Shown here piece by piece: positions 3,216 through 64,000 of a stretch of DNA of 64,000 bases. Under the pieces are notes generated by a model. It searched no databases. It was not told the origin of the DNA and was given only the letters and a program-made list of their open reading frames with translations. The position numbers were made by a program, and so were the translations under genes. Source of the stretch: an uncultured Actinomycetes bacterium (GTDB lineage Bacteria; Actinomycetota; Thermoleophilia; Solirubrobacterales; 70-9); contig CAVOMF010000002.1 in NCBI GenBank assembly GCA_963696955.1, positions 354,044 to 418,043 of the forward strand, in the 5' to 3' direction. Each line of letters begins with the position of its first letter. The first letter of the stretch is position 1.

Positions 3216-3244
3216 CACAATTAACCGGCCCCGGATTTCTCTCC

Positions 3245-7733: not shown

Positions 7734-7766
7734 ATCCCCAAGGGCACGCTCCAATAGCTTCGTCTT

Positions 7767-8387: not shown

Positions 8388-8621
8388 ATGCCGAGGAAGC
8401 CGCGCAACTGGAACGACCCAGCGGGCCTTGATCCAAGGACTGGCGAAGAGCTCCGCGTCTGCGATCTCATTCGAATTGGCGAGGAAATCCTCGGCGTGCG
8501 TCACAATCCAGAGCGAGCTAAGCGATGGCACGCATGGCGAGAGGAACTGACTGATGACCAACGCAGGCAATACACGAGAGCCCGTGGAAAACGGCCGCAA
8601 GGCAGAGCTACTGGTTGGTGA
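8388..8621 (+). CDS. hypothetical small protein
   Basis: 77-aa ORF in the less GC-rich patch. No recognisable motif. A 10-bp hairpin (8351-8386) ends 1 nt before the ATG. Confidence 0.3.
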   Translation: MPRKPRNWNDPAGLDPRTGEELRVCDLIRIGEEILGVRHNPERAKRWHAWREELTDDQRRQYTRARGKRPQGRATGW

Positions 8622-9093
8622 GGCAGACGAGTTGCTCGCCAGCGCGCTTGCGCCTGGGCATTGGCCGGAGTCCGATGAGGTTGATCGGTTTCTTTCAGAG
8701 GGCAAGCTGGATCGCGTCCTAGCGCTATACGGCCATGCGATGCGTCTGGACGCCGATGAGCCCTCCTACCCATGGAACCTTGCGTCGGCGATGAATCGCC
8801 TTGGACTTAATGACCTTGCGTTGGGGTTTCTCAGCCGAGCGATCCACTTGGCGGAGCAAAGGGAAGAAGGCGAGTGGTCTGGACCGGATGCTCAACTTGC
8901 CTTGGCCGAGATGGCGATGGATGCCGGTGAGTACGACCTAGCCCTCACCGCTCTCGCGCATGCCCGCGAGGCGGACGAGTCAAGTGACCTTTGGGATCAA
9001 GTCAAGGAGCTTCTCGTTGAGATCGGTCGCCAGCGCAAAGACCCGAAGCCGCAGGCGTCTTTGGCCTCGCTCCTTGAGCAGCTTCCGGCGTAG
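8554..9093 (+). CDS. hypothetical protein, TPR-like helical repeats
   Basis: 179 aa. Repeated Ala/Leu-rich helix pairs (YPWNLASAMNRLGLNDLALGFLSRAIHLA; AQLALAEMAMDAGEYDLALTALAHA). Confidence 0.45.
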   Translation: MTNAGNTREPVENGRKAELLVGEADELLASALAPGHWPESDEVDRFLSEGKLDRVLALYGHAMRLDADEPSYPWNLASAMNRLGLNDLALGFLSRAIHLAEQREEGEWSGPDAQLALAEMAMDAGEYDLALTALAHAREADESSDLWDQVKELLVEIGRQRKDPKPQASLASLLEQLPA

Positions 9094-9133
9094 CAAAGAC
9101 CGATACATCCGTTCCAAGGCGTACCTTCGAAGA

Positions 9134-9304
9134 ATGAAGGTGCATCTCAACATCAATTACGAGGTCGAGGACGACGACCCTCAGATCGAGGAGGTCGGAA
9201 TGCAGATCGTCGGCGAGGAGGCACGCGCATTCGGCGCTGCAATCCGCGACCGCCTCTCTGAGGCCGGGGTCGATATCCGGGAGTTCGAGGTCAAGGCAGC
9301 CTAG
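9134..9304 (+). CDS. hypothetical small acidic protein
   Basis: Internal ATG of the 8960-9304 ORF: MKVHLNINYEVEDDDPQIEEVGMQIVGEEARAFGAAIRDRLSEAGVDIREFEVKAA. Confidence 0.3.
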   Translation: MKVHLNINYEVEDDDPQIEEVGMQIVGEEARAFGAAIRDRLSEAGVDIREFEVKAA

Positions 9305-9354
9305 GCCCGACTTGGTTCCAGACCGAGGTCGGGGCTAGTTGCAGAGAGGGCGAA

Positions 9355-10107
9355 ATGGCTCTCGCGGCACAAACGCGGAAGATTCTTTGGGCGCGATCAG
9401 GTAACCAATGCGCCAAATGTCAGGCTGCGCTAGTCGCGCCTGACGAGGTGGCGAAAGGTAAGCCTGCAATCGTAGGTCAGGAGTGCCACATCGTCGCCAG
9501 GGCTCCAGATGGACCACGGGGGCGTGAGCAGGCGGATTGCGATTTGGATGACTACGCCAACCTGATCTTGCTTTGCGCCAATTGCCATGTGGTTGTGGAT
9601 GGCTGCCCGGATCTCTTTTCACGGGTTGAGCTATTGCGAATTAAGAAGGAGCATGAGAGCCGCTTGGCCGCCCGTGATGGGAACCCGTTTCAGTTCCCCA
9701 GGCTTCGGATTGAGGAGCCGGATTCGGCACCCGCGCTGATACGCATTGATCACGGCAAGACGCTACTTGACGTATTTCGTTCTGCCTGTGTCGGAAGCCG
9801 AAAGGTTCCGCCGCTGCTTTCCAGTGACCAGCGCTCGCTCGTTGTGGACTTCCTTGACTCATTTGACTGCTGGAACGAAGCCTATGAGGAGGTTGGTTGG
9901 GGTCGGCAGCTTGAAGCCGAGCACGACCTCGATGATCAATTGGAAGCCTTGCGTGATGTGGGCCTGTTCGTGTTTGCCGGGACGAAGAAATGCACGATGG
10001 TCGCGGAAGGGCGGGACCCAGTTCCATGGCCACATGCGATCTTGGTCGTCGTCCACGAAGTGGACGCCAGAGCCGACTCCAATGAGCAATTCAAGCAACC
10101 CGTCTGA
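9355..10107 (+). CDS. HNH endonuclease with an unknown C-terminal domain
   Basis: SGNQCAKCQ...GQECHIVARAPDGPRG...YANLILLCANCHVVVD is the Cys-rich HNH (beta-beta-alpha-metal) signature. Confidence 0.8.
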   Translation: MALAAQTRKILWARSGNQCAKCQAALVAPDEVAKGKPAIVGQECHIVARAPDGPRGREQADCDLDDYANLILLCANCHVVVDGCPDLFSRVELLRIKKEHESRLAARDGNPFQFPRLRIEEPDSAPALIRIDHGKTLLDVFRSACVGSRKVPPLLSSDQRSLVVDFLDSFDCWNEAYEEVGWGRQLEAEHDLDDQLEALRDVGLFVFAGTKKCTMVAEGRDPVPWPHAILVVVHEVDARADSNEQFKQPV

Positions 10108-10496
10108 AGAGCCGCCATCGGGCGGGAGCGAGCTACCGTGGCCGCGATCTGGCGGCCACGTTTTCATTTCCGGAGACGACTGGTGGATGAATGCATGCGT
10201 CAACTGGGGAGGAGGCTGGACTCTCTATGCGATCGGCTACAGGAATGCAGGAGACGTCTTGGTCGAGCGTGTGGAACAAGACAGGGGAGAGGCTGACGCG
10301 CTGGTCTATCCAATCGTCTTCTGTTACCGCCAGTACATAGAGCTGATGCTCAAGGACACGTTGATGGAGGCTCGTCGCTACCACGGCATTGACGAACCGT
10401 TTGAGGAGCATCCAGAGGTCATTGGCTTGGGCAAGATCGTTTCAACTGATGCAGGACTCGTCGCCAATCGTGAAGTTCTTGAGCCAGCTGGCATGA
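10082..10496 (+). pseudogene. hypothetical protein overlapping the HNH gene end; apparent +1 frameshift near 10410
   Basis: ATG 10082 lies 26 nt inside the HNH gene and opens ...GGWTLYAIGYRNAGDVLVERVE...YPIVFCYRQYIELMLKDTLMEARRYHGIDEPFEEH. The original frame then stays open antisense through the next gene. The +1 frame instead gives IQRSLAWARSFQLMQDSSPIVKFLSQLA and a stop at 10494-10496. Confidence 0.35.
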
Positions 10497-10693
10497 CGAG
10501 TTTGCAGGCGGCGCTTCGTCGATACGAGTACTCCTGGGGCTCGTTGCACGGTGGCATCTACGTGACGGATGAGGCGGAAGACGAGATTGACGATGAGAGT
10601 CAGACCGATGAGACCTCCCTCGTCTTCAGTGATGGCCGGCTGATGGCTGATCGCGACGACGCCCACCGACGCGCCGATCCGCGACGCTCTGGG

Positions 10694-11980
10694 CTAGCTC
10701 TTTGGCGATTGCCGCCCCATCATGCTCATGCCCCGCTCGAGCCGGCGGACGGTGGTCGCGCCTGGCGGCACCGGGACGGCGCGGAAGGTCGGGGCCGGCA
10801 GGTGCAGGCGGAAGGCGATCCTGCCCTGGCGGTCGAAGCCGGTGAGGAGCTTGTTGTCGCCCCAGCTGACGAGCCAGCCGCCACCGGGCAGTTCCCGCGC
10901 CGAGCCGCAGCAGTGGCTCCGCTTCACCTCCGGGTCGTTGAGCTGTCCCTTGTAGATGGCCTTGCCGGCGCCGAGGTCGAGCTTGTAGAAGACGACGCGC
11001 GGGCGGCGGGGGCGGTCCTTGCCGTTGTCGAAGATCGTCAGCCGGCCGTAGCGATCGAGGCGGGCGTCGTGCTGGCCCCCGAGCAGCTTCGTCGCCGGGT
11101 CGCCGACCACCCGCAGGGAGTTGCCGGTGTGGCTGCCGCCGAGCTTCCAGTTGATCTCCCCGCCGGCGCGGTCGATCCCGTAGACGGCATCGGTGTGGCG
11201 GGTGGAGATGATCACTTCGTCCCGCCCCCGCGGCTCGATCGAGTTGATGTGGACGGGGTCGTAGGCCTCGCGCTGGAGCCGGCGGCGCGGGTTGCTGAGC
11301 ACGCTGTGCCACCAGCGGCCCGTCTCCGAGAGGGCGATGTGGCCGCGCGAGTTCCAGCTCCAGAGAACCTTCCCGGCGGGGTCGACTTCCTGCGCTTCGG
11401 CGGAGACGATCGTCGCCCGCCTGGGGCCGCCGACGCGACGCAGGTCGGCCGTTTCCGGGACGTAGGTGTCGAGGAACACGTTGCCGTTCGCGAGCTCGCG
11501 GTACTCGTGACCGTCGACGATCGACCCCTCGGTCTTGACCAGGCGCAGCAGCTTGCCCGACTCCGAGCGCACCTCGTGGGCCATCCGCGGGTCGAGCCCG
11601 TAACCGTCGCCGAAGGAGCGCGCCCAGACGACGCTGCCGTCGCCGACGATCTGCCCCCACAGCGCTCGCGTATCGGGGTTGAACCACCAGCGAGGCCTGC
11701 CTTCGGTGTCGAAGACGATCACCCAGGGGCGCCCGTCCTCGCCCGAATAGGTGACGACGAAGAGGCCGAAGGGCACCGGGCGGATCGATTCGAACCGCGT
11801 CGGCGGGAAATCCGCCGGCGGTTTGGGGAGGTGGGACGCCGGCTGCGCTCTCGCGTCATCAGGCTCGCCACCGGCCTGTCCGCATCCGCTGAGAAGAAGC
11901 AGCGAGACGATCGCCAGCGGGAGCAGGGCGCCCACGGCACGGATCGACCTCGAACGATGGCGCAGCAGGATCTGCACCAA
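10694..11980 (-). CDS. arylsulfotransferase (ASST)-family lipoprotein
   Basis: 428 aa. Signal peptide plus lipobox LLLLSGC. Beta-propeller-like ASST sequence (HEYRELANGNVFLDTY, DPVHINSIE, GGQHDARLDRYGRLTIFDNG). Confidence 0.7.
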   Translation of the reverse strand: MVQILLRHRSRSIRAVGALLPLAIVSLLLLSGCGQAGGEPDDARAQPASHLPKPPADFPPTRFESIRPVPFGLFVVTYSGEDGRPWVIVFDTEGRPRWWFNPDTRALWGQIVGDGSVVWARSFGDGYGLDPRMAHEVRSESGKLLRLVKTEGSIVDGHEYRELANGNVFLDTYVPETADLRRVGGPRRATIVSAEAQEVDPAGKVLWSWNSRGHIALSETGRWWHSVLSNPRRRLQREAYDPVHINSIEPRGRDEVIISTRHTDAVYGIDRAGGEINWKLGGSHTGNSLRVVGDPATKLLGGQHDARLDRYGRLTIFDNGKDRPRRPRVVFYKLDLGAGKAIYKGQLNDPEVKRSHCCGSARELPGGGWLVSWGDNKLLTGFDRQGRIAFRLHLPAPTFRAVPVPPGATTVRRLERGMSMMGRQSPKS

Positions 11981-53488: not shown

Positions 53489-55985
53489 GCTGCCCGACTC
53501 CGCCCGCTGCGTCATCGTCGGGGGCGGCGTCGGCGGCACCTCACTCGCCTACCACCTCGCGAAGCTCGGCTGGGAGGACGTTGTCCTGCTGGAGCGCTCC
53601 CAGCTCACCTCCGGCTCGACCTTCCACTCGGCGGGGCTGGTCGGCCAGCTGCGCGGCTCGGTCTCGCTGACGAAGATGATGATGCACTCGGTCGAGCTCT
53701 ACCGGCAGCTCGGCGAGGAGTCCGAGTTCGACCCCGGCTGGGTCGAGTGCGGCGGCATCCGGCTCGCTTCCAGCGAGGAGCGGATGGAGGAGCTGCGCCG
53801 GCAGGCGGGCTGGGCGAAGACCTTCGGGCTGCCGCTGGAGCTGATCTCGGCCGAGGAGGCGAAGGAGCTGTTTCCGCTGATGTCGACCGAGGGAGTGCTG
53901 GGCGCGGCCTGGCTGCCGACCGACGGCTACATCGACCCGGCGCAGCCGACCTACGCGCTCGCCGACGGCGCCCGCCAGGGGGGCTGCCGGATCTTCACCA
54001 ACACGCGGGTGACCGGGATCGACGTCCGCGACGGTCGCGTGCGCGGGGTGCGGACCGAGCAGGGCGACGTCGCCGCCGAGGTGGTGGTCGACGCCGGCGG
54101 CATGTTCGCGGCCGAGATCGCCCGCATGGCCGGCGTCCGCGTGCCGGTGATCCCGATGTCCCACCAGTACCTCGTCACCCAGCCGCTGGAGGAGGTCCGC
54201 GAGGCGCGCCGGTCCTTAGTTCCGGATAGCGACACAAATGACCGGAGCACCCGTGGTCACCTCCCCACTTTGCGGGATCCCGACCTGCTGGTCTACTACC
54301 GCGAGGACGGGGCCGGGCTGGTGATGGGCGGCTACGAGCGGCGCAGCGAGCCGGCCTTCCTGCCCGGGGGGACGGGGCGGGTGGAGGCGATCCCGGCTGA
54401 CTTCAATGGCCGACTGCTGGAAGAGGACTGGGAGCGCTTCGAGGAGATCACCGAGAACTCGAAGCGACGGGTGCCGGCGATGGACCGGATTACCGTCACC
54501 AAACTGATCAACGGTCCCGAGGCGTTCACCCCGGACAACGAGTTCTGCCTCGGCGAGACCGAGGTCGGCGGTTTCTTCGTCTGCGCCGGCTTCTGCGCCC
54601 ACGGGCTCGCCGGCGCCGGCGGGATCGGCAAAGTCGTCGCCGAGTGGATCGTCGAGGGGGAACCGAGCCTCGACCTCTGGCACATGGACATCCGCCGCTT
54701 CGGCGCCCAGTACCGCTCCCCCGCCTACACCCACGCGCGGATCAGGGAGACCTACGAGACCTACTACGACATCCGCTACCCCAACCACGAGCGGGGGGCG
54801 GGGCGGCCGCTGCGGGTCTCGCCGGCGAACGCCTGGCACCGCGAGCATGGGGCGGCCTTTGGCGAGAAGTCCGGCTGGGAGCGGGTCAACTGGTACGAGC
54901 GCAACGCCGCCGGGGACGAGGAGCTGCGGCCGCGCGGCTGGGCGGGGCAGCACTGGTCGCCGGCGATCGGCGCCGAGCACCGGGCAACGCGGGAGGCGGT
55001 CGCCCTCTTCGACGAGAGCTCCTTCGCCAAGCTCGAGATCGAGGGACGGGGCGCCGAGAGCTTCCTCGAAATCCTCTGCGACAACCGCGTCGGCCGCGGC
55101 GTCGGCCAGATCACCTACACGCAGATGCTCAACCACCGCGGCGGCATCGAGTGCGACTTCACGGTGGCGCGGCTGGCCGAGGAGCGCTTCTCGATCGTCA
55201 CCGGCACCGCCTCCGGCAACCACGACCGCGAGTGGATGCGCCGCCACCTGCCCGGCGAGGAAGTGCGGATCCACGACGTCACCTCGCAGTGGGCATGCTT
55301 CGGGATCTGGGGACCGCGGGCGCGCGAGGTGCTGCAGCCGCTCACTCCCCAGGACCTCGGCAACGAGGCCTTCCCCTACATGAGCCTGCGCGAGACGACG
55401 GTCGGCAATGTGCCGGTGCGGATGCTGCGGGTGACCTACGTCGGCGAGCTCGGCTGGGAGATCTACTGCCCGACCGAGTACGGCCTCGGGCTCTGGCGGG
55501 CGCTCTGGGAGGCGGGGCAACCGCACGGCATCCTCGCCGGCGGCTACCGGGCGATCGACAGCCTCCGGCTCGAGAAGGGCTACCGCGTCTGGGGCGCCGA
55601 CATCACCCCGGACGAGACCCCGTACGAGGGCGGGGTCGGCTTCTGCGTCAAGCTCGAGAAGGAGGGCGGCTTCATCGGCCAGGAGGCGCTGCTCGAGGCG
55701 AAGGAGCGCGGGCCGCGCTCCCGTCTCTGCTGCCTCACCCTCGCCGACCCCCACTCGATCGCCCTCGGCAACGAGCCGGTCCGGGTCGGCGGCGAGATCG
55801 TCGGCCGGGTGACCACCGGCGGCTATGGCTACACCGTCGAGCGCTCGATCGCCTACGCCTACCTGCCGCCGGAGGCGAGCGAGCCGGGGACCGCAGTCGA
55901 GGTCGAGAGCTTCGGCCGCTGGGTCGAGGGCGAGGTCGCGCAAGAGCCGCTCTTCGACCCGAAGGGCGAGCGCGTGCGCGCCTAA
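53475..55985 (+). CDS. FAD-dependent oxidoreductase fused to a GcvT-like aminomethyltransferase domain (dimethylglycine/sarcosine dehydrogenase family)
   Basis: VIVGGGVGGTSLAYHL dinucleotide fold. C-terminal folate-binding GcvT-type domains (GELGWEIY, GYRAIDSLRLEKGY). Confidence 0.85.
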   Translation: MPRAELPDSARCVIVGGGVGGTSLAYHLAKLGWEDVVLLERSQLTSGSTFHSAGLVGQLRGSVSLTKMMMHSVELYRQLGEESEFDPGWVECGGIRLASSEERMEELRRQAGWAKTFGLPLELISAEEAKELFPLMSTEGVLGAAWLPTDGYIDPAQPTYALADGARQGGCRIFTNTRVTGIDVRDGRVRGVRTEQGDVAAEVVVDAGGMFAAEIARMAGVRVPVIPMSHQYLVTQPLEEVREARRSLVPDSDTNDRSTRGHLPTLRDPDLLVYYREDGAGLVMGGYERRSEPAFLPGGTGRVEAIPADFNGRLLEEDWERFEEITENSKRRVPAMDRITVTKLINGPEAFTPDNEFCLGETEVGGFFVCAGFCAHGLAGAGGIGKVVAEWIVEGEPSLDLWHMDIRRFGAQYRSPAYTHARIRETYETYYDIRYPNHERGAGRPLRVSPANAWHREHGAAFGEKSGWERVNWYERNAAGDEELRPRGWAGQHWSPAIGAEHRATREAVALFDESSFAKLEIEGRGAESFLEILCDNRVGRGVGQITYTQMLNHRGGIECDFTVARLAEERFSIVTGTASGNHDREWMRRHLPGEEVRIHDVTSQWACFGIWGPRAREVLQPLTPQDLGNEAFPYMSLRETTVGNVPVRMLRVTYVGELGWEIYCPTEYGLGLWRALWEAGQPHGILAGGYRAIDSLRLEKGYRVWGADITPDETPYEGGVGFCVKLEKEGGFIGQEALLEAKERGPRSRLCCLTLADPHSIALGNEPVRVGGEIVGRVTTGGYGYTVERSIAYAYLPPEASEPGTAVEVESFGRWVEGEVAQEPLFDPKGERVRA

Positions 55986-56018
55986 GCGCGTTTCCGTTCC
56001 GGTGGTTTGGAAAAGCGC

Positions 56019-56753
56019 CTAGGCGGGCTCGAGGCGGAGCGGCGCCGGCAGGAGGCCGGCGAGGATGTGCTCGGTTCCCTCGGTGTGTTCGCGCATCTCC
56101 CGCACCGCCCGCGGACCGTCCCCTTTGCGCAGCGCCTTGACCAGCTGCGCATGCTGCTCGTTGGAGCGGGTGAGGACCTCCGGCGGGTGGGCGATGAGCG
56201 CGATCAGGGCGCTCATCTGCGACTGCGCGTCGGTCATCGCGCTCAGCATCCGCGGCGACTGCGCGGCCTCGGCGATGCCGATGTGGAAGCGGATGTCGGT
56301 GCGGCGGAACTCCTCGAAGTCCTCGAGCTCGTCTTCCATCTTCGCCACCAGCTCGTCGAGGCGGTCGAACTGCTCGATGCTCCCCCGCTCCGCCGCCAGC
56401 AGCACCGCGCCGGACTCGATCGCGACGCGGTAGTCAAGCGCCGCCCACGCCCTCTGGTCCAATGGCTCGCCATCCGGTTCGGCCAGCGGCGGCCGCTCGG
56501 CGACGAAGGTGCCGCCGGTGCGCCCACGCTGCGAGACCAGGTGCCCGCTCTGGACCAGCGCCGTCAGCGCCTGCCGCAGAGTCGAACGGGAAATCCGCAG
56601 CTGCTTCGCCAGCTCCCGCTCCGGCGGCAGCTTCGCGCCAGGGGCGAGCAAGCCCGCCCGAATCGCGCTCCCCAGCCGCTCTACCGTCTCCTCGAAGGTG
56701 CTCGCCGGCTGCACCGGCATGAACACCGCCTCAAGCGCTGCGTCGCGCTCCAT
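56019..56753 (-). CDS. GntR/FadR-family transcriptional regulator
   Basis: LPPERELAKQLRISRSTLRQALTALVQSGHLVSQRGRTGGTFV wHTH plus an FCD-type helical C-domain. Confidence 0.85.
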   Translation of the reverse strand: MERDAALEAVFMPVQPASTFEETVERLGSAIRAGLLAPGAKLPPERELAKQLRISRSTLRQALTALVQSGHLVSQRGRTGGTFVAERPPLAEPDGEPLDQRAWAALDYRVAIESGAVLLAAERGSIEQFDRLDELVAKMEDELEDFEEFRRTDIRFHIGIAEAAQSPRMLSAMTDAQSQMSALIALIAHPPEVLTRSNEQHAQLVKALRKGDGPRAVREMREHTEGTEHILAGLLPAPLRLEPA

Positions 56754-56774
56754 GAAGAGAACCGTACCGCTCGG

Positions 56775-57104
56775 TTAGGAATCCATGTCCATATAGCGGT
56801 TGAAAGCCTCGCGAGCCAGTTCGCTGAGCGAGCGCCCTTCCTTGTCGGCCCGGGCCCAAGCGGCCTCGTAGAGATCGGGCGGGACGCGGAAGCTGACGCG
56901 CGGGGAGAGGCCTTTGGGACCGAGAGAGGGGCGACCGACATAGCGGCGCACGAGTTCAGACGGGTCGGGGGGATTTTTCTCGAATTCATCCGCCCACTGT
57001 TCGGCGAGCTCCTCCGTAATCACAGTCCCTGACCGCGTCACTCCGAGGACCTCGTCCCCCTTGCTCCCTTTGTCCTTCTTACCTGGTTTTTTCACTTTTC
57101 CCAT
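56775..57104 (-). CDS. ribbon-helix-helix (CopG-like) antitoxin-type protein
   Basis: GRPSLGPKGLSPRVSFRVPPDLYEAAWARADKEGRSLSELAREAFNRYM. Overlaps the upstream gene by 13 nt. Confidence 0.65.
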   Translation of the reverse strand: MGKVKKPGKKDKGSKGDEVLGVTRSGTVITEELAEQWADEFEKNPPDPSELVRRYVGRPSLGPKGLSPRVSFRVPPDLYEAAWARADKEGRSLSELAREAFNRYMDMDS

Positions 57105-57439
57105 GACCGTGCCTCCTCGTAGAGCTCTCGAAATCGATCCCGAAGGTCCATCGCGTGGATCACCATGAACTCATCCTCATCTTCTTCGGCCGCGATGACC
57201 TCAATCGCCACTCCCTCGAGATCATCGCCGAGGAAGACAACTCGCTGGTCGACAGTTGAATGCGTGGGCCGCGTGACCAACTGGAGCCCGCAGCGCTCGA
57301 CAACGCAGAGCGAGCGCTCCCGGGAGATCCGGTGCCGGGTGGCTGATCGCGCGAAGGTGATCTTTGGTTCCTCAGGCCAAACATTCTGTCTGACAGAATA
57401 GCGGAGCTCTGGGTCTAGCTCTTTACGCAAAACGCGCAC
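57092..57439 (-). CDS. toxin-like small protein (family uncertain)
   Basis: GTG 57439 chosen. ...ITFARSATRHRISRERSLCVVE...VVFLGDDLEGVAIEVIAAEEDEDEFMVIHAMDLRDRF resembles small actinobacterial toxins ending IHAM..R. Coupled to an RHH gene. Confidence 0.4.
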   Translation of the reverse strand: MRVLRKELDPELRYSVRQNVWPEEPKITFARSATRHRISRERSLCVVERCGLQLVTRPTHSTVDQRVVFLGDDLEGVAIEVIAAEEDEDEFMVIHAMDLRDRFRELYEEARSWEK

Positions 57440-57465
57440 TAACAGCCACGGTGGGTTGACCTCTT

Positions 57466-57774
57466 CTAACTCGTCTTCGGCACGAAGACGAAGGCGCGAT
57501 CGTCCTCCGAGAGATGGAGATATCGCCTCGTCCAGTAGTGCTTGTAGACCTGCAGCCGGGTCCCGTCGACCAGCCGGACCGTGCCCATCCACATGAAGTC
57601 GACGACGTGGTCTCGGGCGAGGTTCAGCAGCGGCTCCCATTCGGGAGCGTCGACGCGCAGCCATTTTCCTCGGATCGGTTTCTGCGGCACGGCCACAACC
57701 TCCCGAGGGAGGTGTGACCGAACAAGACGCGGAAGTGCCGCTTCTGAAAAACCTTGGTGCCGGGGTCGTGACAT
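57466..57774 (-). CDS. hypothetical protein
   Basis: This is the real-looking C-terminal part of the 307-aa track ORF (KWLRVDAPEWEPLLNLARDHVVDFMWMGTVRLVDGTRLQVYKHYWTRRYLHL). The rest of that ORF is antisense to the next gene. Confidence 0.45.
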   Translation of the reverse strand: MSRPRHQGFSEAALPRLVRSHLPREVVAVPQKPIRGKWLRVDAPEWEPLLNLARDHVVDFMWMGTVRLVDGTRLQVYKHYWTRRYLHLSEDDRAFVFVPKTS

Positions 57775-57804
57775 CCTCCCCCTGGGCCGCGAAAGAAGGA
57801 GGAC

Positions 57805-58377
57805 ATGATGGGGAAGATCGTCGTCACCGAGTTCATCTCGCTGGACGGGGTGATCGAGGACCCGGGCGGGGCCGAGGACTACAGCCGCGGCGGCTGGGCC
57901 TTCGACTTCGACCGCGGCGCCGAGGGGGACAAGTTCAAGATGGACGAGCTCGTGGAGGCCGAGGCCCAGCTGCTCGGCCGCGTCACCTATGAAGGTTTCG
58001 CCGCCGCCTGGCCGGAGCGTGACGACGAGGCGGGCTTCGCGAAGAAGATGAACGAGATGCCGAAGTACGTCGTCTCCTCGACCCTCGAGCGGCCCGAGTG
58101 GCAGAACACGACCGTCCTCAGCGGCGACCTCGCCGGGGCGGTCGCCCGGCTGCGCGACGAAGTCGACGGCATCGTCCTCGTCGCCGGCAGCGCCAGCCTC
58201 GTCCAGGCCCTCGTCGAGCACGACCTCGTCGACGAGCTGCGCCTGATGCTGTTCCCCGTCCTCCTCGGCGAGGGCAAGCGCCTCTTCCCCACCGGCGACG
58301 CCAAAAAGCCCCTCCGCCTGACGGAGGCGAAAACGGTCGGCGACGGCGTCGCGATCCTCCGCTACGAGCGCCCATAG
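57805..58377 (+). CDS. dihydrofolate reductase family protein (RibD C-terminal domain type)
   Basis: KIVVTEFISLDGVIEDPGG...LLGRVTYEGFAAAWP...KYVVSSTL...LMLFPVLLGEGKRLF. Confidence 0.85.
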   Translation: MMGKIVVTEFISLDGVIEDPGGAEDYSRGGWAFDFDRGAEGDKFKMDELVEAEAQLLGRVTYEGFAAAWPERDDEAGFAKKMNEMPKYVVSSTLERPEWQNTTVLSGDLAGAVARLRDEVDGIVLVAGSASLVQALVEHDLVDELRLMLFPVLLGEGKRLFPTGDAKKPLRLTEAKTVGDGVAILRYERP

Positions 58378-58411
58378 CGCCAACCTCAAGATCGCTTAGA
58401 ACGACCGGCCA

Positions 58412-58439
58412 GCCCACCCTGCGCAGGAGTAGGGTGGGC
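58412..58439. terminator. 9-bp hairpin abutting the left direct repeat (terminator or operator)
   Basis: GCCCACCCT-n10-AGGGTGGGC, 35 nt after the DHFR-family stop and ending where repeat R1 begins. No T-tract. Confidence 0.35.
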
Positions 58440-58602
58440 CGATGCCCGTCTTCCACGTTCGCTTCAAGGGCATGCTCACCGGTCAGGAGCGCGAGCGGCT
58501 GACCGCTGCCGGCATCCACCTCGAGGGCCGCGAATCCTCAATGGTCGTCGGCTCACCCGAGACCGGAACCGCTCCCACCGGCCGCCCGATCTACACCGTC
58601 AG
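58439..58602 (+). repeat. direct repeat R1 (164 bp)
   Basis: Identical to 60376-60539 except 4 mismatches. Covers the RBS, the start and the first 53 codons of the 86-aa gene. Confidence 0.9.
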
Positions 58603-58702
58603 CGTCGAGGCGAACTCCGCCGAGGAGGCGTTGCGAAGGGTGCGCGATGCGATCGAACCGGACACTGCGAACTTCTCAGGTTGGGAAGCCGCGCCGGCCT
58701 GA
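58442..58702 (+). CDS. hypothetical 86-aa protein (intact copy)
   Basis: MPVFHVRFKGMLTGQERERLTAAGIHLEGRESSMVVGSPETGTAPTGRPIYTVSVEANSAEEALRRVRDAIEP... Confidence 0.5.
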   Translation: MPVFHVRFKGMLTGQERERLTAAGIHLEGRESSMVVGSPETGTAPTGRPIYTVSVEANSAEEALRRVRDAIEPDTANFSGWEAAPA

Positions 58703-58790
58703 GCGAATTTACAAAGCCTCTCGCCTCTCGCCTCAAATTCATGACTTTGTGCGCGCCACCTGTGCGCTGCCGCCGCCTAGCGTCGCGCTC

Positions 58791-59165
58791 ATGGGATGGC
58801 CGCCCAGAGAAGGAGAGTTTTTGCCCCGCGCAGAGGAAGCTCGCGGCGTCCGCCGGAAGCTCGAGGCGTACTCCCTGAATCTGTTCCACGAGTCGGGAGG
58901 TCCGAAGGCTCGGGGCTTTGCTCACCTGCTCGGGATCACGATCGAGGCAGTCGATGAGTTGGAAGCTGCGATACACCAGGCCGTCTTGGAAACTCGAATC
59001 AGCTCAGTTAGGAAGAACCGTGAAGGCGGATTCAATTGTGTGATCGACTTTTCGATGCGGGGACAAGGCACCCGAAATGAGCGATTCGTCCGAGTCCGAA
59101 CCGTCTGGGAGCTGGCGAGCCCAACGTCCCGTCCTCGTCTTGTGACCGCATTCCCAAGCCCCTAG
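58791..59165 (+). CDS. DUF6883-like protein
   Basis: RKLEAYSLNLFHESGGPKARGFAHLLGIT matches the K-L..Y.L...H..GG.KA..F pattern I associate with DUF6883. ATG 58791 preferred. Confidence 0.5.
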   Translation: MGWPPREGEFLPRAEEARGVRRKLEAYSLNLFHESGGPKARGFAHLLGITIEAVDELEAAIHQAVLETRISSVRKNREGGFNCVIDFSMRGQGTRNERFVRVRTVWELASPTSRPRLVTAFPSP

Positions 59166-59176
59166 ACTGAAGAAGC

Positions 59177-59392
59177 ATGCGGACCGCTCATCTTCAGATC
59201 ACGGAGAACGACTACGTCGAGTTGACCCGCGATATCGGCAAGTGGCCATCGGGCACTCGTGGCACGGCTGTCAGCGATCATGGGTCATGGAAGCTGATTG
59301 AGGTCGCTGACGATTACGGCAAGATGCTCGACCTGCTCGAAGTTGACGATCGCGACCTGCGGCTCATAACGCAGCATCCCTTCGCTGCCTAA
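59177..59392 (+). CDS. DUF4926-like small protein
   Basis: 71 aa. DYVELTRDIGKWPSGTRGTAVSDHGSWKLIEVADDYGKMLDLLEV. The usual partner of DUF6883 genes. Confidence 0.45.
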   Translation: MRTAHLQITENDYVELTRDIGKWPSGTRGTAVSDHGSWKLIEVADDYGKMLDLLEVDDRDLRLITQHPFAA

Positions 59393-59487
59393 GGAATTTC
59401 AGGCTCGCCCTCACCTTCGCGAACTTCTCGCAGGCGTAGGTATGCTGGATCGCCGGATGTTTTTGTCTGCTACAGTGTATAACAAAT

Positions 59488-59865
59488 ATGTTCTATGATC
59501 TTGCAATGCGGCACACTCCGCCCGAAATCAAGTGCGGGTCATTCGTGAGAGAGCTACGTGGGGAGCGCGGCTGGGGGCAGGCCGAGCTCGCCCGACGCGC
59601 CGGCATGGAGCAGCCGGCAGTCAGCCGAATTGAGCGGGACGTGATCTCTCCCTCACTCGACACGTTGCATCGGCTCTTCGGGGCGCTGGGCATGACCTTT
59701 GTTCTCGAACCGGTTCGGCTTCAAGACAGGGTCCCCGGCGGCGGGAACCAAAGCATCGCCGAGCTCCGCTCCGACTTTCGAGACCTGACCGCTGAGGAGC
59801 GCCTCGCGCAGGCCGCTCATCTCAGCGAGGTCACCACGGAGCTTGCCTCGGGCGCACAGATATGA
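59488..59865 (+). CDS. XRE-family helix-turn-helix protein (antitoxin-like)
   Basis: FVRELRGERGWGQAELARRAGMEQPAVSRIERDVISPSLDTLHRLFGALG. Confidence 0.8.
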   Translation: MFYDLAMRHTPPEIKCGSFVRELRGERGWGQAELARRAGMEQPAVSRIERDVISPSLDTLHRLFGALGMTFVLEPVRLQDRVPGGGNQSIAELRSDFRDLTAEERLAQAAHLSEVTTELASGAQI

Positions 59866-60368
59866 CGCAGGCGCTGAAGCTTGAGCCCCTTCTGAAGGCT
59901 CTGATTGACCACGAGGTCGGTTTCATCATCGTCGGCGGCTTCGCAGTTGTCGCCCACGGTTATGTCCGCGCAACGAAGGACGTCGATATCTGCCCGGAGC
60001 CCTCTGACGAGAATCTGGGGCGCTTGGCTGCCGCGTTAGCCGAGCTTGAAGCCGAGCCTCTCGGGCTAGACGATTTCGCGCCGGAGGAGTTCAACCTCCG
60101 ACCGGATCACGAAGGCCTGCAGCTCGGTGGCAACTGGACTCTACGCACGAAATTCGGCCGTCTCGACGTCCTCCAGCACATCAAGGGACTGGGTGGAGAC
60201 GAAGGCGGATGGAAAGAGCTATCGCGCCGGGCTGTCCGGAGGAAGTTTGTCGGATACGACTGCCTCTTCTGCAACTACGAGGACCTGCTCTCGATGAAGG
60301 TGAGCGCAGGGCGCCCTCAGGACGAGTTCGACATCAAAAGCCTGAAGGCAGCGCGCGGCGAACTGTAG
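59862..60368 (+). CDS. nucleotidyltransferase-fold protein (DUF6036/AbiEii-like)
   Basis: ATGA overlap with the XRE gene. FIIVGGFAVVAHGYVRATKDVDICPEP supplies the G-G...D-x-D NTase core. Confidence 0.55.
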   Translation: MTQALKLEPLLKALIDHEVGFIIVGGFAVVAHGYVRATKDVDICPEPSDENLGRLAAALAELEAEPLGLDDFAPEEFNLRPDHEGLQLGGNWTLRTKFGRLDVLQHIKGLGGDEGGWKELSRRAVRRKFVGYDCLFCNYEDLLSMKVSAGRPQDEFDIKSLKAARGEL

Positions 60369-60375
60369 CCTCCTT

Positions 60376-60539
60376 CCGATGCCCGTCTTCCACGTTCGCT
60401 TCAAGGGCATGCTCACCGGTCAGGAGCGCGAGCGGCTGACCGCTGCCGGTATCCACCTCGAGGGTCGCGAATCCTCGATGGTCGTCGGCTCACCGGAGAC
60501 CGGAACCGCTCCCACCGGCCGCCCGATCTACACCGTCAG
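60376..60539 (+). repeat. direct repeat R2 (164 bp)
   Basis: Second copy of R1, 1937 bp downstream. Its last 12 nt also encode the last three codons and the stop of the convergent Fic gene. Confidence 0.9.
60379..60539 (+). pseudogene. truncated duplicate (first 53 codons) of the 86-aa gene
   Basis: Same MPVFHVRFKGML...RPIYTV sequence. Beyond the repeat the frame runs antisense into the Fic gene and gives low-complexity nonsense. Confidence 0.7.
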
Positions 60540-61742
60540 AGCCAACGACCGCTCGAACTCGTCGACCAGATCGAGCAACTCGTCGCACTCCCATACCCGT
60601 CCCCACCTCCGCTCGTTCAGGGGCCTGAGGATTCCGGCATCCACCAGCTGCCTCATCGCGTTGCCGACGGCTACGTGCGACTTGGCCGTGATCCGCTGCC
60701 CCGTAGCTATGTCGATGACCGGCTGCTCGGGTAACGCCGCCACCAGCTGCCGCACAGCGGCGTCGCCGCGCGGCTGGCCCAGTCGCTCCAGCCAGTCCTG
60801 CTGCCGCTCCTCGATGTGCCTGGCAAATCCGACAGCCGCTTCGGCCGCCCGGCCGGTGGCCTCGGCAAAGACCTCGCACCAGGAGCTGACGTCTCCACCG
60901 CTATAGGCGCCAAACCCGTTCACATAGGTTTTCGGTCGCGCCCCCAAAACCAAGCTGATCGGCGGTACGTAGTCCTTGATCTCCTCGCGCCGGCGCAGGA
61001 CCGCGTAGATCAACGCTCTTCCGGTTCTCCCGTTCCCGTCCGCGAAGGGATGGATGTTCTCGAACTGTGCGTGGGCGATCGCCGCCTGGGCGACCGGCGG
61101 CAGGTCGGTCCGTTCGATGAAGCGGCACAGGTCCTCCATCAGCTCGGGGACGTAGCCGGGCGGCGGGGGCACGTAGGTCGCGCCAACCGGGTTGTAGTCG
61201 TTCCCGCCGATCCAGTTCTGCTTTTCGCGGATGACCCCGGCAATGTCCCGGTCCTCCGTATGGCACAAGAGCGTCCGGTGGATCTCGAGGATGTCCTTCA
61301 CCTCGAAGGCCGTAGGCGGCTCCGCCAGGCTGATCGCCCTCTGCATTGCTTCGACGTTTCCCAGTACCTCTGCCGCCTTGCCATCGGCGCGCCCGATTCC
61401 TTCATATTCAGCCCTGGCCAGCCGCTTATGCGAGATAGACACCCCCTCGATCCGGGACGACGCGACGCTCTCAGAGCGCAGCAGGTTCTGCGCGACCGAT
61501 CCCAGCCTCGCGATCCGGGGTGGGTCCTCGGTGAGCCGGACGAGCGCCCGAGCAGCCACCGCCATGGCAGCACTGGCCACGTCACTGAACGAGAGCGACA
61601 GCCCGGCAATCTTCGCCGGTACGAATGCGTCGTAGACGCCACCTCGCCGGGCACGACCAGTGCCATAGGCCTCCGGCTCGCTCGGCCAGAAGTGCTCCTC
61701 GTATCGACCCAGCGGCTCCACTATCCCTACAGAGTTTACCAA
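60528..61742 (-). CDS. Fic-family protein (AMPylase-type) with Fic_N and C-terminal wHTH regions
   Basis: HAQFENIHPFADGNGRTGRALIYAVL is the canonical HxFx(D/E)GNGRxxR motif. 404 aa. Confidence 0.9.
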   Translation of the reverse strand: MVNSVGIVEPLGRYEEHFWPSEPEAYGTGRARRGGVYDAFVPAKIAGLSLSFSDVASAAMAVAARALVRLTEDPPRIARLGSVAQNLLRSESVASSRIEGVSISHKRLARAEYEGIGRADGKAAEVLGNVEAMQRAISLAEPPTAFEVKDILEIHRTLLCHTEDRDIAGVIREKQNWIGGNDYNPVGATYVPPPPGYVPELMEDLCRFIERTDLPPVAQAAIAHAQFENIHPFADGNGRTGRALIYAVLRRREEIKDYVPPISLVLGARPKTYVNGFGAYSGGDVSSWCEVFAEATGRAAEAAVGFARHIEERQQDWLERLGQPRGDAAVRQLVAALPEQPVIDIATGQRITAKSHVAVGNAMRQLVDAGILRPLNERRWGRVWECDELLDLVDEFERSLALTV

Positions 61743-61769
61743 GCTTTGTAAGGTTAAACCGCTTACCTT

Positions 61770-62303
61770 TCAGGCCTGGGTAACGACAAAGCCGCCGAAG
61801 GCCGCCAGCAGCGTGATCCCGAAGCCGACCCCCGCCACCATCAGGGCATGTAGGAGCTTGTCGAACCTCTCGTTGAGGCGCCCCAACTCGACCTTGACTT
61901 CTTTCATCTCGCCTTTGAGCCCTTCCTGCCCAACCCTGAGCTCTCCCACATCGCCTTTGACCCCTCCCAACTCGACTTTGACCCCTCCGAGTTCCCGCCT
62001 AACCTCTCCAACTTCCCCTTTGACATCTCCAACTTCCCCTCGGACGGCTGCGACTTCTCCTCGGACCGCTACGACTTCCCCGCGGACCGCTGCGACTTCC
62101 CCTCGGACCGCTACGACTCCCTCTTTGACTCCGCCCAGTTCGCCCTTCGTGGCGACCTTGGCGAACCTGTCCTTCATCTCGCCTTCGAGCTGCTCGAAGC
62201 GGCGGTCCACCTTGGTGAACCCGTCGTTGACCCGCCGGTTCAGTTCATCGAGCCTCTCGTCGTTCCAAGTGCCCATTTGCCTCTCCATGTCCAGTGCCTC
62301 CAT
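61770..62303 (-). CDS. tail-anchored coiled-coil protein made of about 13 heptad repeats
   Basis: Residues 55-143 are heptads (GVVAVRG EVAAVRG EVVAVRG EVAAVRG EVGDVKG EVGEVRR ELGGVKV ...). C-terminal TM segment LLHALMVAGVGFGITLLAAFGGFVV. Confidence 0.65.
   Translation of the reverse strand: MEALDMERQMGTWNDERLDELNRRVNDGFTKVDRRFEQLEGEMKDRFAKVATKGELGGVKEGVVAVRGEVAAVRGEVVAVRGEVAAVRGEVGDVKGEVGEVRRELGGVKVELGGVKGDVGELRVGQEGLKGEMKEVKVELGRLNERFDKLLHALMVAGVGFGITLLAAFGGFVVTQA
62016..62120. repeat. 21-bp tandem repeats (best-conserved core of a 61875-62141 array)
   Basis: ACTTCCCCTCGGACGGCTGCG / ACTTCTCCTCGGACCGCTACG / ACTTCCCCGCGGACCGCTGCG / ACTTCCCCTCGGACCGCTACG, with degenerate units on both sides. 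In-frame coding repeats. Confidence 0.85.
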
Positions 62304-62508
62304 GATGACAGAAGCGTAGACAAAAAGTTGCTACAGGTTGCACACGAAGGTAATTTCTCTGCGGCGGATATGTGCTGCGGCCGTGACTTCAGGGGAGGCG
62401 ATGGTTGCGACTTAGGCAGCATCTACTAATAAGACAGGACTATTTATTTTAGTTGGGTGTATCGCCTACTATTCTGCCATCGGGACTAGGGCGTCATCCA
62501 ACGGCTCG

Positions 62509-63687
62509 GTGCGGGGAGCGAACGATCCGCGGGTTCTCCTGGCGGATCACCTCCAGCTGCGCTCATCTGAAATCTGTCAAACCATCCTCGACCGCCTCCA
62601 CGCGATGGCGGGCGAGGACGGAGTCAGGGACATCGAGTACCTGCGTGGGCTCGAGGCGGCGGTCTTGAGCGGTGTCGAGTATGGCCTCAAGATCACCATG
62701 CTCGGAAGCACCACGCCACCCCGCTTCCCGGTACCTGTACTGATGCAGCCACGACTCGCCGCTCGTCACCGGATCCCACTGACACTCGTGCTCAACCGGT
62801 ACATCGCGGCACAGGCCGTTCTCATCGAATTCGTCCTGAAATCCGGTACGGAACTCCCTGATGTCAGTCCACCGGTGCTGAATGCGGTGTTGGCGGCCCA
62901 CAACGCGGCATTGAGCGGGCTCGTCACAGCGGTTTCCGCTGAGTACGAGCGAGAGGAGGCCGCTCTTGCCTCAAATGGGAGGTCCCAGCGTGCCGAGCTG
63001 ATTCAGCGTCTCCTACGCGCCGAACCAGTGGATCCGAGCTCGCTGGATTACCCGTTCGACGGATACCACTTGGGGCTGGTGGTGCTATCCCCAGATCCCG
63101 GCCCCCTACTTCGCGCGCTAAGCAAAGAGGTCAACGCCCGTCTGCTCATGACCAAGGCGCCTGATTCGACGACCTGGGCATGGCTAGGTGGGAAGAAGCC
63201 GCCGGACCCGATCGCTGTTTCCGAGTGGGCAGAGGGGAATTGGCCGCGGGCCGTGCCCTGTGGGGCAGGCGAGGTCACGCGCTCCTTGGCCGGCTGGCGC
63301 CGCACCCACGAACAGGCCCGAGCAGCCGCAAGCGTTGCCCACCTGACCTCCCACGCCGTGGCGAAATATCGCGACGTCGCCCTGCTTGCAACCGCCCATC
63401 GAGACCCTCTACTCCTCGCCTCGATGCAGGACATGTACCTGGATCCGCTGAGCCAAGCGGGTGATCGAGGGGAGGTGCTCCGAGCAACGCTTCGTGCATT
63501 CTTCGACGCGAGGCGCAACCGCAAGTCCGCGGGAGCCACCCTTGGGGTTACCCGGCAAACGGTCTCGAAAGACCTCAAGATCGTAGAAGGGCACTTGGAT
63601 CAGCCCATAATCGAATGTGGTGACCTATTGCGGGCCGCCCTCCAGCTTGAGGAACGTGGCGCTTTCCCCACACTTGACAATTGTTAA
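62509..63687 (+). CDS. PucR-like helix-turn-helix regulator (start uncertain)
   Basis: C-terminal LRATLRAFFDARRNRKSAGATLGVTRQTVSKDLKIVEGHL. Confidence 0.65.
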   Translation: MRGANDPRVLLADHLQLRSSEICQTILDRLHAMAGEDGVRDIEYLRGLEAAVLSGVEYGLKITMLGSTTPPRFPVPVLMQPRLAARHRIPLTLVLNRYIAAQAVLIEFVLKSGTELPDVSPPVLNAVLAAHNAALSGLVTAVSAEYEREEAALASNGRSQRAELIQRLLRAEPVDPSSLDYPFDGYHLGLVVLSPDPGPLLRALSKEVNARLLMTKAPDSTTWAWLGGKKPPDPIAVSEWAEGNWPRAVPCGAGEVTRSLAGWRRTHEQARAAASVAHLTSHAVAKYRDVALLATAHRDPLLLASMQDMYLDPLSQAGDRGEVLRATLRAFFDARRNRKSAGATLGVTRQTVSKDLKIVEGHLDQPIIECGDLLRAALQLEERGAFPTLDNC

Positions 63688-63793
63688 TTAACCCTCCCAT
63701 CCTTTTACATCAAGCACCTGAAACTGCTCAGTACGTCCAAGAGACTCTGCCGGGACAGGAGCATTTGCTCTGACACTCGAGATAGGAGGATCT

Positions 63794-64000
63794 ATGCCTG
63801 TTGCTCTGAACAGGATGAAGTTCTGGCTCGCTGCGATCGGCTCGGTGGTAGCACTGGCACTTGTCGTCCAGCCAGCCACGGCGGGGGCGTCCACCAGCCC
63901 GTATTGCGGGGGCTGGAAGAGCCCTTACCAAGAGTGCGGTGGAGAAGGCCGTTGGCTATACCAGACTTACGGTTGGGGAGACCAAGCGTCTGTCTGCGTA
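63794..64000 (+). CDS. secreted Cys-containing protein, 3' end beyond the window
   Basis: AGGAGG lies 4 nt upstream of the ATG. MPVALNRMKFWLAAIGSVVALALVVQPATAGAST signal peptide, then PYCGGWKSPYQECGGEGRW... Confidence 0.5.
   Translation, partial: MPVALNRMKFWLAAIGSVVALALVVQPATAGASTSPYCGGWKSPYQECGGEGRWLYQTYGWGDQASVCV

Follow-up and report, generated by a model that had tools for sequence, protein, structure and literature searches.

Long, nearly identical direct repeats around toxin-antitoxin (TA)-like genes of low GC content mimic the attL/attR boundaries of an integrated element, and a locus of this kind in an uncultured member of the Solirubrobacterales raises the question of whether its repeats delimit a mobile cassette or have another origin. 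The locus lies within a 64-kb stretch of DNA (hereafter the window, to which all coordinates refer), where two repeats, designated R1 and R2, enclose four accessory genes, the first repeat forming the start of a small gene that we term S86 and the second abutting the 3' end of a convergent Fic gene. The original prediction saw here a non-autonomous cassette, recently inserted or accreted by duplication. From comparisons with related loci (identified below by L numbers), we consider it likely that R1 and R2 are instead the 5' parts of two old S86 paralogues, the second copy of which was truncated at Fic within a TA/defence hotspot, such that the attachment-site interpretation is a misreading that can now be corrected.

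Geometry of the repeat pair

The locus comprises the following features:

58412-58439, plus strand: hairpin upstream of S86 copy A (fold -32.9 kcal/mol, z=-3.35; conserved)
58439-58602, plus strand: R1, consisting of 3 nt, codons 1-53 and 2 nt of S86 copy A
58442-58702, plus strand: S86 copy A, intact 86-aa gene; conserved Solirubrobacterales core gene with a predicted ferredoxin-like fold
58821-59165, plus strand: DUF6883, predicted RNase toxin of the BECR-Tox3 type (Pfam 1.7e-14; likely TTG start after GAAGGAG)
59177-59392, plus strand: DUF4926-like small protein, presumed antitoxin/immunity partner (weak Pfam match, 4e-3, below cutoff)
59488-59865, plus strand: XRE-family HTH protein, presumed antitoxin or regulator (HTH_3 2.6e-11)
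59862-60368, plus strand: DUF6036 nucleotidyltransferase (NT6036), distantly AbiEii-like (Pfam DUF6036 3.9e-7; PADLOC AbiEii 1.1e-4)
60376-60539, plus strand: R2, probable 5' stump (codons 1-53) of a second S86 paralogue, copy B'
60539-60540, no strand: probable illegitimate junction at which codon 53 of S86 copy B meets the Fic module, with loss of S86 codons 54-86 and of the native Fic tail
60528-61742, minus strand: SoFic-like Fic protein with Fic_N and Fic domains (Pfam Fic 2e-22, Fic_N 6e-10; PADLOC SoFic 1.6e-70)
61770-62303, minus strand: coiled-coil/TM protein with a weak DUF2730 match and 21-nt heptad repeats; the L001 orthologue lies 7 nt after a complete copy B
62509-63687, plus strand: PucR-like regulator (Pfam GGDEF_2 and HTH_30), conserved right border of the variable slot

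R1 and R2, each 164 nt long, are 98% (97.6%) identical at a spacing of 1937 nt (blastn E=1.6e-77) and differ at four positions (58513, 58528, 58540 and 58558); the coordinates, mismatches and 1937-bp period described originally were all reproduced, and blastn detected no third copy in the 64-kb window. The DNA between the repeats is less GC-rich, as also described, at 60.4% vs 67.2% across the window. Each of the four mismatches is synonymous and falls at a third codon position, and the first 53 residues encoded by R2 are identical to those of the intact 86-aa ORF. In both copies the repeat begins 3 nt 5' of the ATG and therefore contains no ribosome-binding site, so that the earlier account of R1 as a ribosome-binding site plus 53 codons is right about the codons but not about the binding site. 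A 175-aa ORF that continues from R2 (60379-60906) and lies antisense to Fic was dismissed as a mechanical ORF of a genome with 67% GC. The chance that the pair is an assembly artefact, whether a falsely duplicated repeat or a chimera, is very remote: four positions distinguish the copies, each copy is bordered by unique sequence on either side, and the two-copy architecture appears in at least seven independent assemblies from different projects.

S86 as a conserved core gene

S86 is a syntenic core gene of the Solirubrobacterales. Its 194 homologues are nearly all 86 aa long and 66-92% identical, and its neighborhood reads GntR, p109, p190, RibD_C, S86, a variable slot and the PucR-like regulator, with the GntR-p109-p190-RibD_C order retained next to S86 wherever the locus extends far enough. 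An AF2 model (pLDDT 81.6) has a beta-alpha-beta-beta-alpha-beta topology. We assign no function to S86, because the matches that a Foldseek search of the PDB returned for this model were all of a generic ferredoxin-like kind (S6, PII, ACT-like; E 3e-3 or worse). A weak Pfam match to DpnD/PcfM covered 18 residues (E=3.5e-3) and was discounted as noise, and look-ups of the exact window sequences of the S86 and NT6036 proteins found no record.

The 9-bp hairpin reported to end where R1 starts was confirmed, its arms spanning 58412-58420 and 58431-58439 and its final base being the first base of R1. It is part of a conserved upstream region of copy A that is also seen in relatives without the cassette, where the hairpin is maintained with paired substitutions (CTCACCTT...AAGGTGAG). 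The 3' arm contains TAGGGT (58430-58435), 6 nt before the S86 ATG, and the arrangement TANNNT-N6-ATG, which predicts a leaderless start at this ATG, stands upstream of most S86 genes examined; the full copy A flank, comprising the hairpin and the end of RibD_C, is kept by the nearest relatives of the window, the majority of the other loci having only TANNNT-N6-ATG. R2 is similarly preceded by TAGCCT (60366-60371). The hairpin belongs to no known RNA family, because Rfam yielded no match for 56500-64000 even when a permissive threshold was used, and a scan of 58300-61900 for sigma-70 promoters and terminators yielded nothing above shuffled expectation.

A second S86 copy in relatives

A second S86 copy in direct orientation, usually full length, is present in 8 of about 32 related loci; the two-copy loci are L001, L002/3/4, L005, L010, L013, L024 and L027, plus the window, and copy B is full length in L001, L002, L005, L010, L013 and L024. 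At least 90 nt of conserved flank, common to L001 through L024, precede copy B and carry on the opposite strand a conserved ORF of some 55 aa, with a stop codon that overlaps the start of a DUF2204 nucleotidyltransferase (NTase) gene. Because this flank is conserved, copy B can be placed at the same position in the L001-L024 genomes. L001, the relative nearest to the window (91.6% nt identity across 5.3 kb), has copy A, then the minus-strand DUF2204 NTase gene, a full copy B and, 7 nt later, the coiled-coil gene. Relatives closer than about 92% nt identity were not found, nor was a full copy B convergent with Fic observed in the lineage of the window.

In a neighbor-joining tree built on S86 codons 1-53, copies A and B pair by genome rather than by position in all seven two-copy genomes measured, and their identity within these genomes, 86-99%, always exceeds the best between-genome value. 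The two copies have distinct flanks that are conserved across genomes, R2 of the window being the weak case with only 6 nt of its own. This topology points to an old, shared duplication whose copies have been held alike by gene conversion. If the copies are kept near-identical in this way, the low divergence of R1 and R2 does not date an insertion, and the earlier argument from low divergence to a recent event loses its basis. The same data bear on the condition under which the original prediction was to be abandoned, namely that relatives carry both copies as ancient, independently evolving paralogues: the copies are indeed old and shared, but they evolve in concert rather than independently.

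That R2 occupies the B-type position is suggested mainly by downstream synteny (the coiled-coil and PucR genes) and by the two-copy state of the nearest relatives, and not by its upstream flank, because homology of the NT6036 module to L109 stops at 60369 and only 6 nt (60370-60375) remain before R2. This same short stretch, which cannot prove an ancestral B-type flank, leaves some room for a recent tandem duplication confined to this lineage, in which a 1937-bp unit from S86 to the NT6036 stop was copied head to tail, after which a deletion reaching the Fic 3' end removed most of the second unit. Such a history would also fit the high identity of 97.6% and the start of the repeat at the same -3 position in both copies. 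We nevertheless regard it as rather improbable. It requires two events, as the old-paralogue model also does; it ignores the copy B already present in the nearest relatives (L001, L002, L027 and L005) and the same coiled-coil gene directly downstream of copy B in L001; and A-B identity is equally high where the duplication is demonstrably old. The earlier suggestion of accretion by duplication thus survives insofar as the two repeats represent paralogous copies of a single gene, but the duplication is old and shared and not recent.

The variable slot and its genes

The gene content reported between the repeats was upheld, with all four genes on the plus strand and their families matched by Pfam. 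DUF6883/DUF4926 and XRE/DUF6036 NTase are presumed TA-like pairs of type II/IV, a prediction from gene content and arrangement: in each, small, adjacent, co-oriented genes combine a toxin family with a partner family and co-occur, and the XRE stop and NT6036 start overlap by 4 nt. Pairing of DUF6883 with DUF4926 has been described (bioRxiv 10.64898/2026.08.28.747851).

Both pairs recur in relatives. DUF6883/DUF4926 is also found in L020, L021, L024 and L026, following S86 in L026 and L024, and remnants of it follow S86 copies in L002 (directly after copy A) and L005. XRE/NT6036 follows a single-copy S86 in L109, L111-113 and L023; the window XRE protein is 89% identical (aa) to its L109 orthologue, sited directly after the single S86 copy, and NT6036 has orthologues in L109 (88%), L111 (84%), L030 (80%) and L023 (71%), with a remnant after S86 in L019. 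The PucR-like regulator lies downstream of S86 in many relatives. The slot between S86 and this regulator, or between the copies in two-copy loci, is a hotspot in which small TA-like and defence modules (DUF6883/DUF4926, XRE/DUF6036-NTase, small-ORF/DUF2204-NTase, SoFic and the coiled-coil protein) are gained, lost and reshuffled, and the genes between R1 and R2 are ordinary residents of it rather than a mobile cassette with attachment sites.

These observations bear directly on the idea that R1 and R2 are the attL and attR sites of a non-autonomous cassette, integrated site-specifically and mobilized by a distal integrase. Direct repeats do bracket lower-GC accessory genes, as that idea requires, and the statement that no integrase lies inside the segment was borne out by Pfam and NCBIfam scans of all genes in 56775-63687. 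The same scans, however, found no recombinase beside the segment, none occurs in the relatives' loci, and the low-GC left end of the window has none among its ORFs of 180 aa or longer, the scanned regions lying outside positions 12000-55000. In relatives the duplicated gene is full length and not reduced to an att stub, and the genes between its copies differ; XRE/NT6036 (L023, L109, L111) or DUF6883/DUF4926 (L026) also stands beside a single-copy S86 with no second repeat. Comparison of related loci with and without the cassette genes revealed neither an empty site with a single att copy nor presence and absence of the segment as a unit. Moreover, excision by recombination between R1 and R2 would leave S86 truncated, with no intact copy, and the irregular R2/Fic boundary cuts both genes, S86 at codon 53 and Fic in its native tail, instead of forming a clean att stub. 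Site-specific integration is thus extremely improbable. An integron gene cassette was likewise rejected: no IntI was found, and instead of an imperfect palindrome of the attC type the repeat consists of coding sequence from a conserved gene.

The R2/Fic junction

The Fic gene is a SoFic-like predicted defence gene, to judge from a PADLOC match covering model positions 6-359 of 361 and an intact Fic motif, HPFADGNGRTGR, of the HPFxDGNGR type in its translation. As originally noted, R2 is truncated and runs into the 3' end of this convergent gene, whose last three codons and stop (LTV-stop, 60528-60539) lie within R2 and derive from the antisense strand of S86 codons 51-53. Fic C-termini read EFERSLA followed by LTV-stop in the window, ERGLASAA-stop in L005, ERSLV-stop in L030 and SLAAPPAVR-stop in L029; the tails differ in every genome after ERSL/ERGL and therefore mark the junction. 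Fic homology to relatives begins at 60540-60547, and homology of the module runs over 60540-61771. Compared with L001, 1232 nt with Fic in the window replace the 7-nt spacer between copy B and the coiled-coil gene together with S86_B codons 54-86. The untruncated state is found in L030, where a complete S86 is convergent with an 87%-identical Fic gene and the two stop codons overlap.

Under the old-paralogue model, an ancient duplication would have produced the direct pair S86_A and S86_B in a subset of related Solirubrobacterales, and gene conversion would have kept the two nearly identical within each genome. In the genome studied here, copy B would then have been truncated at codon 53 by an illegitimate deletion or replacement that joined it to the 3' end of the convergent SoFic-like gene, at a cost of some 100 nt of S86_B and roughly three terminal Fic codons, after which the antisense strand of S86 codons 51-53 would supply the new LTV-stop. 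Loss of copy B would be tolerable because copy A stays intact.

A different order of events is offered by a Campbell-type insertion, in which a circle carrying one S86 and the four genes, perhaps looped out of a relative's two-copy locus, entered a resident truncated S86-Fic junction by a single crossover, thereby restoring S86 and creating the repeats. When polarized, the four mismatches read ancestral, ancestral, derived, derived in R1 and derived, derived, ancestral, ancestral in R2, the order that a single crossover predicts, although it would arise by chance one time in three. That all four are synonymous (P ~0.005 if neutral) would be expected of two functional alleles from different lineages, but after polarization each copy carries two changes, and the synonymous excess in the R2 stump alone has P ~0.07; purifying selection on the stump, considered from the same four synonymous differences, was rejected as not significant on this value. 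The insertion further requires transient loss of a gene present in every relative, no circular form or donor was seen, and a search for different nearest relatives of the 3' and 5' parts of copy A, as expected of a mosaic or donor origin, gave no signal, with greater divergence in the S86 3' part than in the 5' part for most comparisons, closest relatives included. We judge a Campbell-type origin to be quite improbable.

Implications

Uncultured soil Solirubrobacterales possess a small, integrase-free variable slot in which gene-end junctions are the points of reshuffling for SoFic, NTase and BECR-type modules, and recognition of the S86 slot helps to annotate these MAGs and provides an example for island-calling heuristics. 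The locus is one of ordinary plasticity and does not reveal a new mechanism. It is unlikely that the S86 copies act as homology 'handles', kept alike by conversion, through which RecA-dependent recombination loops out, re-inserts and swaps TA/defence modules; were this so, the locus would represent an integrase-free cassette-exchange system specific to these Solirubrobacterales, and the window would display one exchange, the SNP order fitting its single crossover.

Comparison with known systems

As in integrative elements that target gene ends, direct repeats containing part of a gene flank accessory DNA at this locus. In contrast to such elements, the locus has no recombinase, the repeated segment comes from the 5' part of the gene, no gene is rebuilt at the right-hand copy, and whole-gene duplicates occur in relatives. 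The window Fic protein resembles the single-gene anti-phage system SoFic (PADLOC PDLC03963) in its full-length match (1.6e-70), Fic_N plus Fic architecture and HPFxDGNGR motif, but its native C-terminal tail has been exchanged for three codons antisense to the S86 stump. Similarly, the window matches BECR-Tox3 (DUF6883)/DUF4926 toxin-immunity pairs in gene order, tight spacing and recurrence in relatives, and departs from them in a DUF4926 match below the Pfam cutoff and in having no MuF fusion.

Concerted evolution by intragenomic gene conversion is familiar in bacteria from, e.g. tuf or rRNA operon copies. Like these, two S86 copies in the same orientation resemble each other more closely within a genome than they resemble their positional counterparts elsewhere, and they retain distinct, conserved flanks; unlike them, the S86 copies are separated by no more than 1-3 kb, with accessory genes between them, and one copy is here a 53-codon stump. 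Finally, chromosomal defence/TA islets between core genes are known, e.g. the core defence hotspots of Pseudomonas, and the S86 slot shares with these its fixed core-gene borders, S86 on the left and the PucR-like regulator on the right, around a changing set of TA-like and defence genes. It differs from the Pseudomonas-type hotspots in being a very small islet (0.1-4 kb) that involves neither an integrase nor a tRNA, and in that its left border gene, S86, has itself been duplicated inside the slot in some lineages.

The repeat and the genes it borders

The best explanation for the right-hand copy (R2, 60376-60539) of a 164-nt direct repeat is that of a truncated paralogue lying within a small, variable toxin-antitoxin (TA)/defence slot, the left-hand copy (R1, 58439-58602) belonging to an intact 86-aa gene, here called S86. 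The two copies, 98% (97.6%) identical with a start-to-start spacing of 1937 nt, form the sole long direct repeat in the scanned region 55000-64000, and blastn of the repeat across the window returned these two copies and no more (E=1.6e-77 for the second). R1 begins 3 nt 5' of the S86 ATG (ORF 58442-58702) and spans codons 1-53; R2 encodes the same 53 residues and then enters the antisense strand of a Fic ORF whose stop and last three codons lie inside the repeat. On these points, and on the lower GC content between the repeats (60.4% vs 67.2% for the window), the original prediction was accurate; its placement of a ribosome-binding site within the repeat was mistaken.

Genes between and around the repeats (Pfam assignments)
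58821-59165, DUF6883 gene (1.7e-14)
59177-59392, DUF4926 gene (match below threshold)
59488-59865, XRE HTH gene
59862-60368, DUF6036 nucleotidyltransferase gene (NT6036)
60528-61742, minus strand, Fic_N plus Fic protein of 404 aa, right of R2
Left flank of S86, RibD_C-domain gene
Right flank, beyond Fic, coiled-coil protein and PucR-like regulator

The Fic protein matches the PADLOC SoFic model over its full length (1.6e-70), and NT6036 gives a weak PADLOC match to AbiEii. DUF6883 has been placed among the BECR-Tox3 RNase toxins with a conserved downstream DUF4926 partner (bioRxiv 10.64898/2026.08.28.747851). Because of these Pfam and PADLOC matches and that published pairing, the earlier description of the inter-repeat genes as two toxin-antitoxin-like pairs is a fair label.

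A second, probably old copy of S86

S86 has 194 homologues, nearly all exactly 86 aa long and 66-92% identical, those named coming from Solirubrobacterales MAGs; its AF2 model (pLDDT 81.6) adopts a ferredoxin-like beta-alpha-beta-beta-alpha-beta fold with generic structural neighbours only. The gene neighbourhood is constant in every related locus (denoted L001, L002 and so on) long enough to judge: GntR, p109 and p190 (minus), usually RibD_C (plus), S86 and a variable stretch, with the PucR-like regulator beyond it in many relatives. Nearly all relatives keep the conserved p109 and p190 genes, which overlap by 13 nt (window 56775-57664, minus), together with GntR and S86; p109 has a weak YlcI/YnfO-like match and p190 matches no family.

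A second S86 in direct orientation occurs at 8 of ~32 distinct loci, namely the window, L027 and six relatives in which it is full length (L001, L002/3/4 counted as one, L005, L010, L013 and L024). This second copy (copy B) has an upstream flank of its own, at least 90 nt long, that is shared by genomes as far apart as L001 and L024, which puts copy B at one and the same site in the genomes with that flank. In a tree of codons 1-53, copies A and B pair by genome in 7/7 two-copy genomes, their identity within a genome (86-99%) always exceeding that to the closest copy from another genome. Tree and flanks are read most parsimoniously as an old duplication whose copies gene conversion has kept alike. 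The low divergence of R1 and R2 had been taken to suggest a recent event, an argument that fails on these figures; 97.6% identity is typical of the S86 family and carries no sign of recency.

The copy B flank also contains, on the opposite strand, a conserved ORF of ~55 aa; its stop and the start of a DUF2204 nucleotidyltransferase gene overlap. Missed by gene callers, it lies head to head with copy B in L001 (5822-5990, minus, beginning VKKTRRTGNWTPDGKAERAALQRDFRELTPAQRAEQVFELSRFMSQLA) and is also found in L002, L005, L010, L013, L024 and L027; L010 retains it although the DUF2204 gene is gone. This ORF probably encodes a partner or antitoxin of the DUF2204 protein. In the long-read MAG L027, copy A (8001-8259) is frameshifted around codon 48, and the first ~38 codons of copy B (8955-9092) are missing with the B flank intact, reflecting either decay of one or both copies or long-read indel errors.

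The hairpin adjoining the start of R1 (stem 58412-58420/58431-58439) is real (z=-3.35) and is kept, with paired substitutions, 5' of copy A in relatives without the four inter-repeat genes; its contact with R1 merely marks where A-type and B-type flanks cease to differ. Its 3' arm holds TAGGGT, 6 nt before the S86 ATG. The arrangement TANNNT-N6-ATG precedes most S86 genes examined, A and B copies alike, and is not evident in L026 and L028; at the loci examined, Shine-Dalgarno sequences are absent between hexamer and start (window 58430-58441 and 60366-60378). This pattern suggests that TANNNT is the -10 element of a leaderless transcript. The R2 stump has TAGCCT 7 nt before its start, the TAG doubling as the nucleotidyltransferase stop codon, and this element may still fire antisense into Fic.

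Probable truncation at the Fic junction

The closest relative, L001 (nucleotide identity 91.6% across 5.3 kb to the left), carries in order S86_A, the DUF2204 gene (minus), a full S86_B, 7 nt and the convergent coiled-coil gene. In the window, a 1232-nt Fic segment (60540-61771, bounds set by homology to L029, L030, L005 and L032) stands in place of S86_B codons 54-86 and the L001-type spacer. The Fic protein ends in ...EFERSLA/LTV in the window, ...ERGLASAA in L005, ...ERSLV in L030 and ...SLAAPPAVR in L029, each before the stop; since these tails differ between relatives, the junction cuts both S86_B and Fic, and the window Fic takes its last three codons and stop from the strand antisense to S86 codons 51-53. 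L030 represents the uncut state, with a complete S86 convergent with an 87%-identical Fic gene and overlapping stop codons (TTAA). The position of the Fic module within the S86 locus differs in each of five cases (window, L005, L029, L030 and L032). S86_B would thus have been truncated in situ where the Fic segment joined, leaving the R2 stump. The SoFic-like gene itself behaves as a gene-sized module, with a C-terminal tail that varies after ...ERSL and no associated recombinase.

Beyond the junction, the coiled-coil/TM protein gene (61770-62303, minus) contains a run of 21-nt (7-aa) GEVAAVR-like repeats at 61900-62190; the product has 177 aa in the window but only 140 and 123 aa in L001 and L005, respectively, which suggests repeat-number variation.

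Each of the four R1/R2 mismatches falls at a third codon position and is synonymous. Comparison with relatives gives C, C, G and G as the ancestral states, from which R2 has departed at the first two sites and R1 at the last two. As each copy has two changes, both of those in R2 would be synonymous with a probability of ~0.07, which makes the case for selection on the stump weak. The left/right order of the SNPs would also fit a single crossover between two alleles, as in a Campbell-type insertion; however, chance alone would give that order in one case out of three, and copy A shows no mosaic signal in its 3' part. No genome closer than ~92% nucleotide identity was found and just 6 nt of flank separate NT6036 from R2, so the order of events and the preference for in situ truncation over two recombination rivals rest on inference.

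A variable slot rather than an inserted cassette

Comparison of relatives revealed that the four genes of the supposed cassette do not form a unit. The XRE/NT6036 pair directly follows a single S86 in L109/L110 (89% and 88% aa identity), L111-113 and L023, and follows Fic in L030; L019 retains a 3' remnant of NT6036 directly after S86. The DUF6883/DUF4926 pair comes after S86 in L026 and L024, and at a greater distance from it, still downstream, in L020 and L021. In L002, copy A is directly followed by 92 nt left over from the 3' end of DUF6883 (86% identical), and a DUF4926 gene follows copy B in L005. The four genes recur in the slot in changing combinations rather than as a single insertion. 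As predicted, the segment contains no integrase; no recombinase was found in it, in its flanks, in the relatives' loci or, at the low-GC left end of the window, among the ORFs of 180 aa or more. Given full-length second copies in relatives, the scattering of the four genes and the lack of a recombinase in these places, R2 as an att stub of an inserted cassette is disfavoured; as the best explanation, the proposed attL/attR pair gives way to a truncated paralogue descended from an ancestral second copy.

That left end (1-11000, 53-63% GC) is a second low-GC stretch and possibly another defence island.

Features of the low-GC left end
686-2479, minus strand, HATPase_c_3 protein
4070-5806, minus strand, AAA_21/OLD-TOPRIM-like ATPase
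6307-6918, ECF sigma factor
9355-10107, weak HNH match

Excision of the segment by homologous recombination between R1 and R2, as originally proposed, is physically possible, but it would remove both TA-like pairs and destroy S86. Since S86, present in every relative, would lose its only intact 3' end, selection is expected to act against deletions of this sort, and the S86 and Fic loci examined contained none. On this reading R2 is a case of ordinary genome plasticity.
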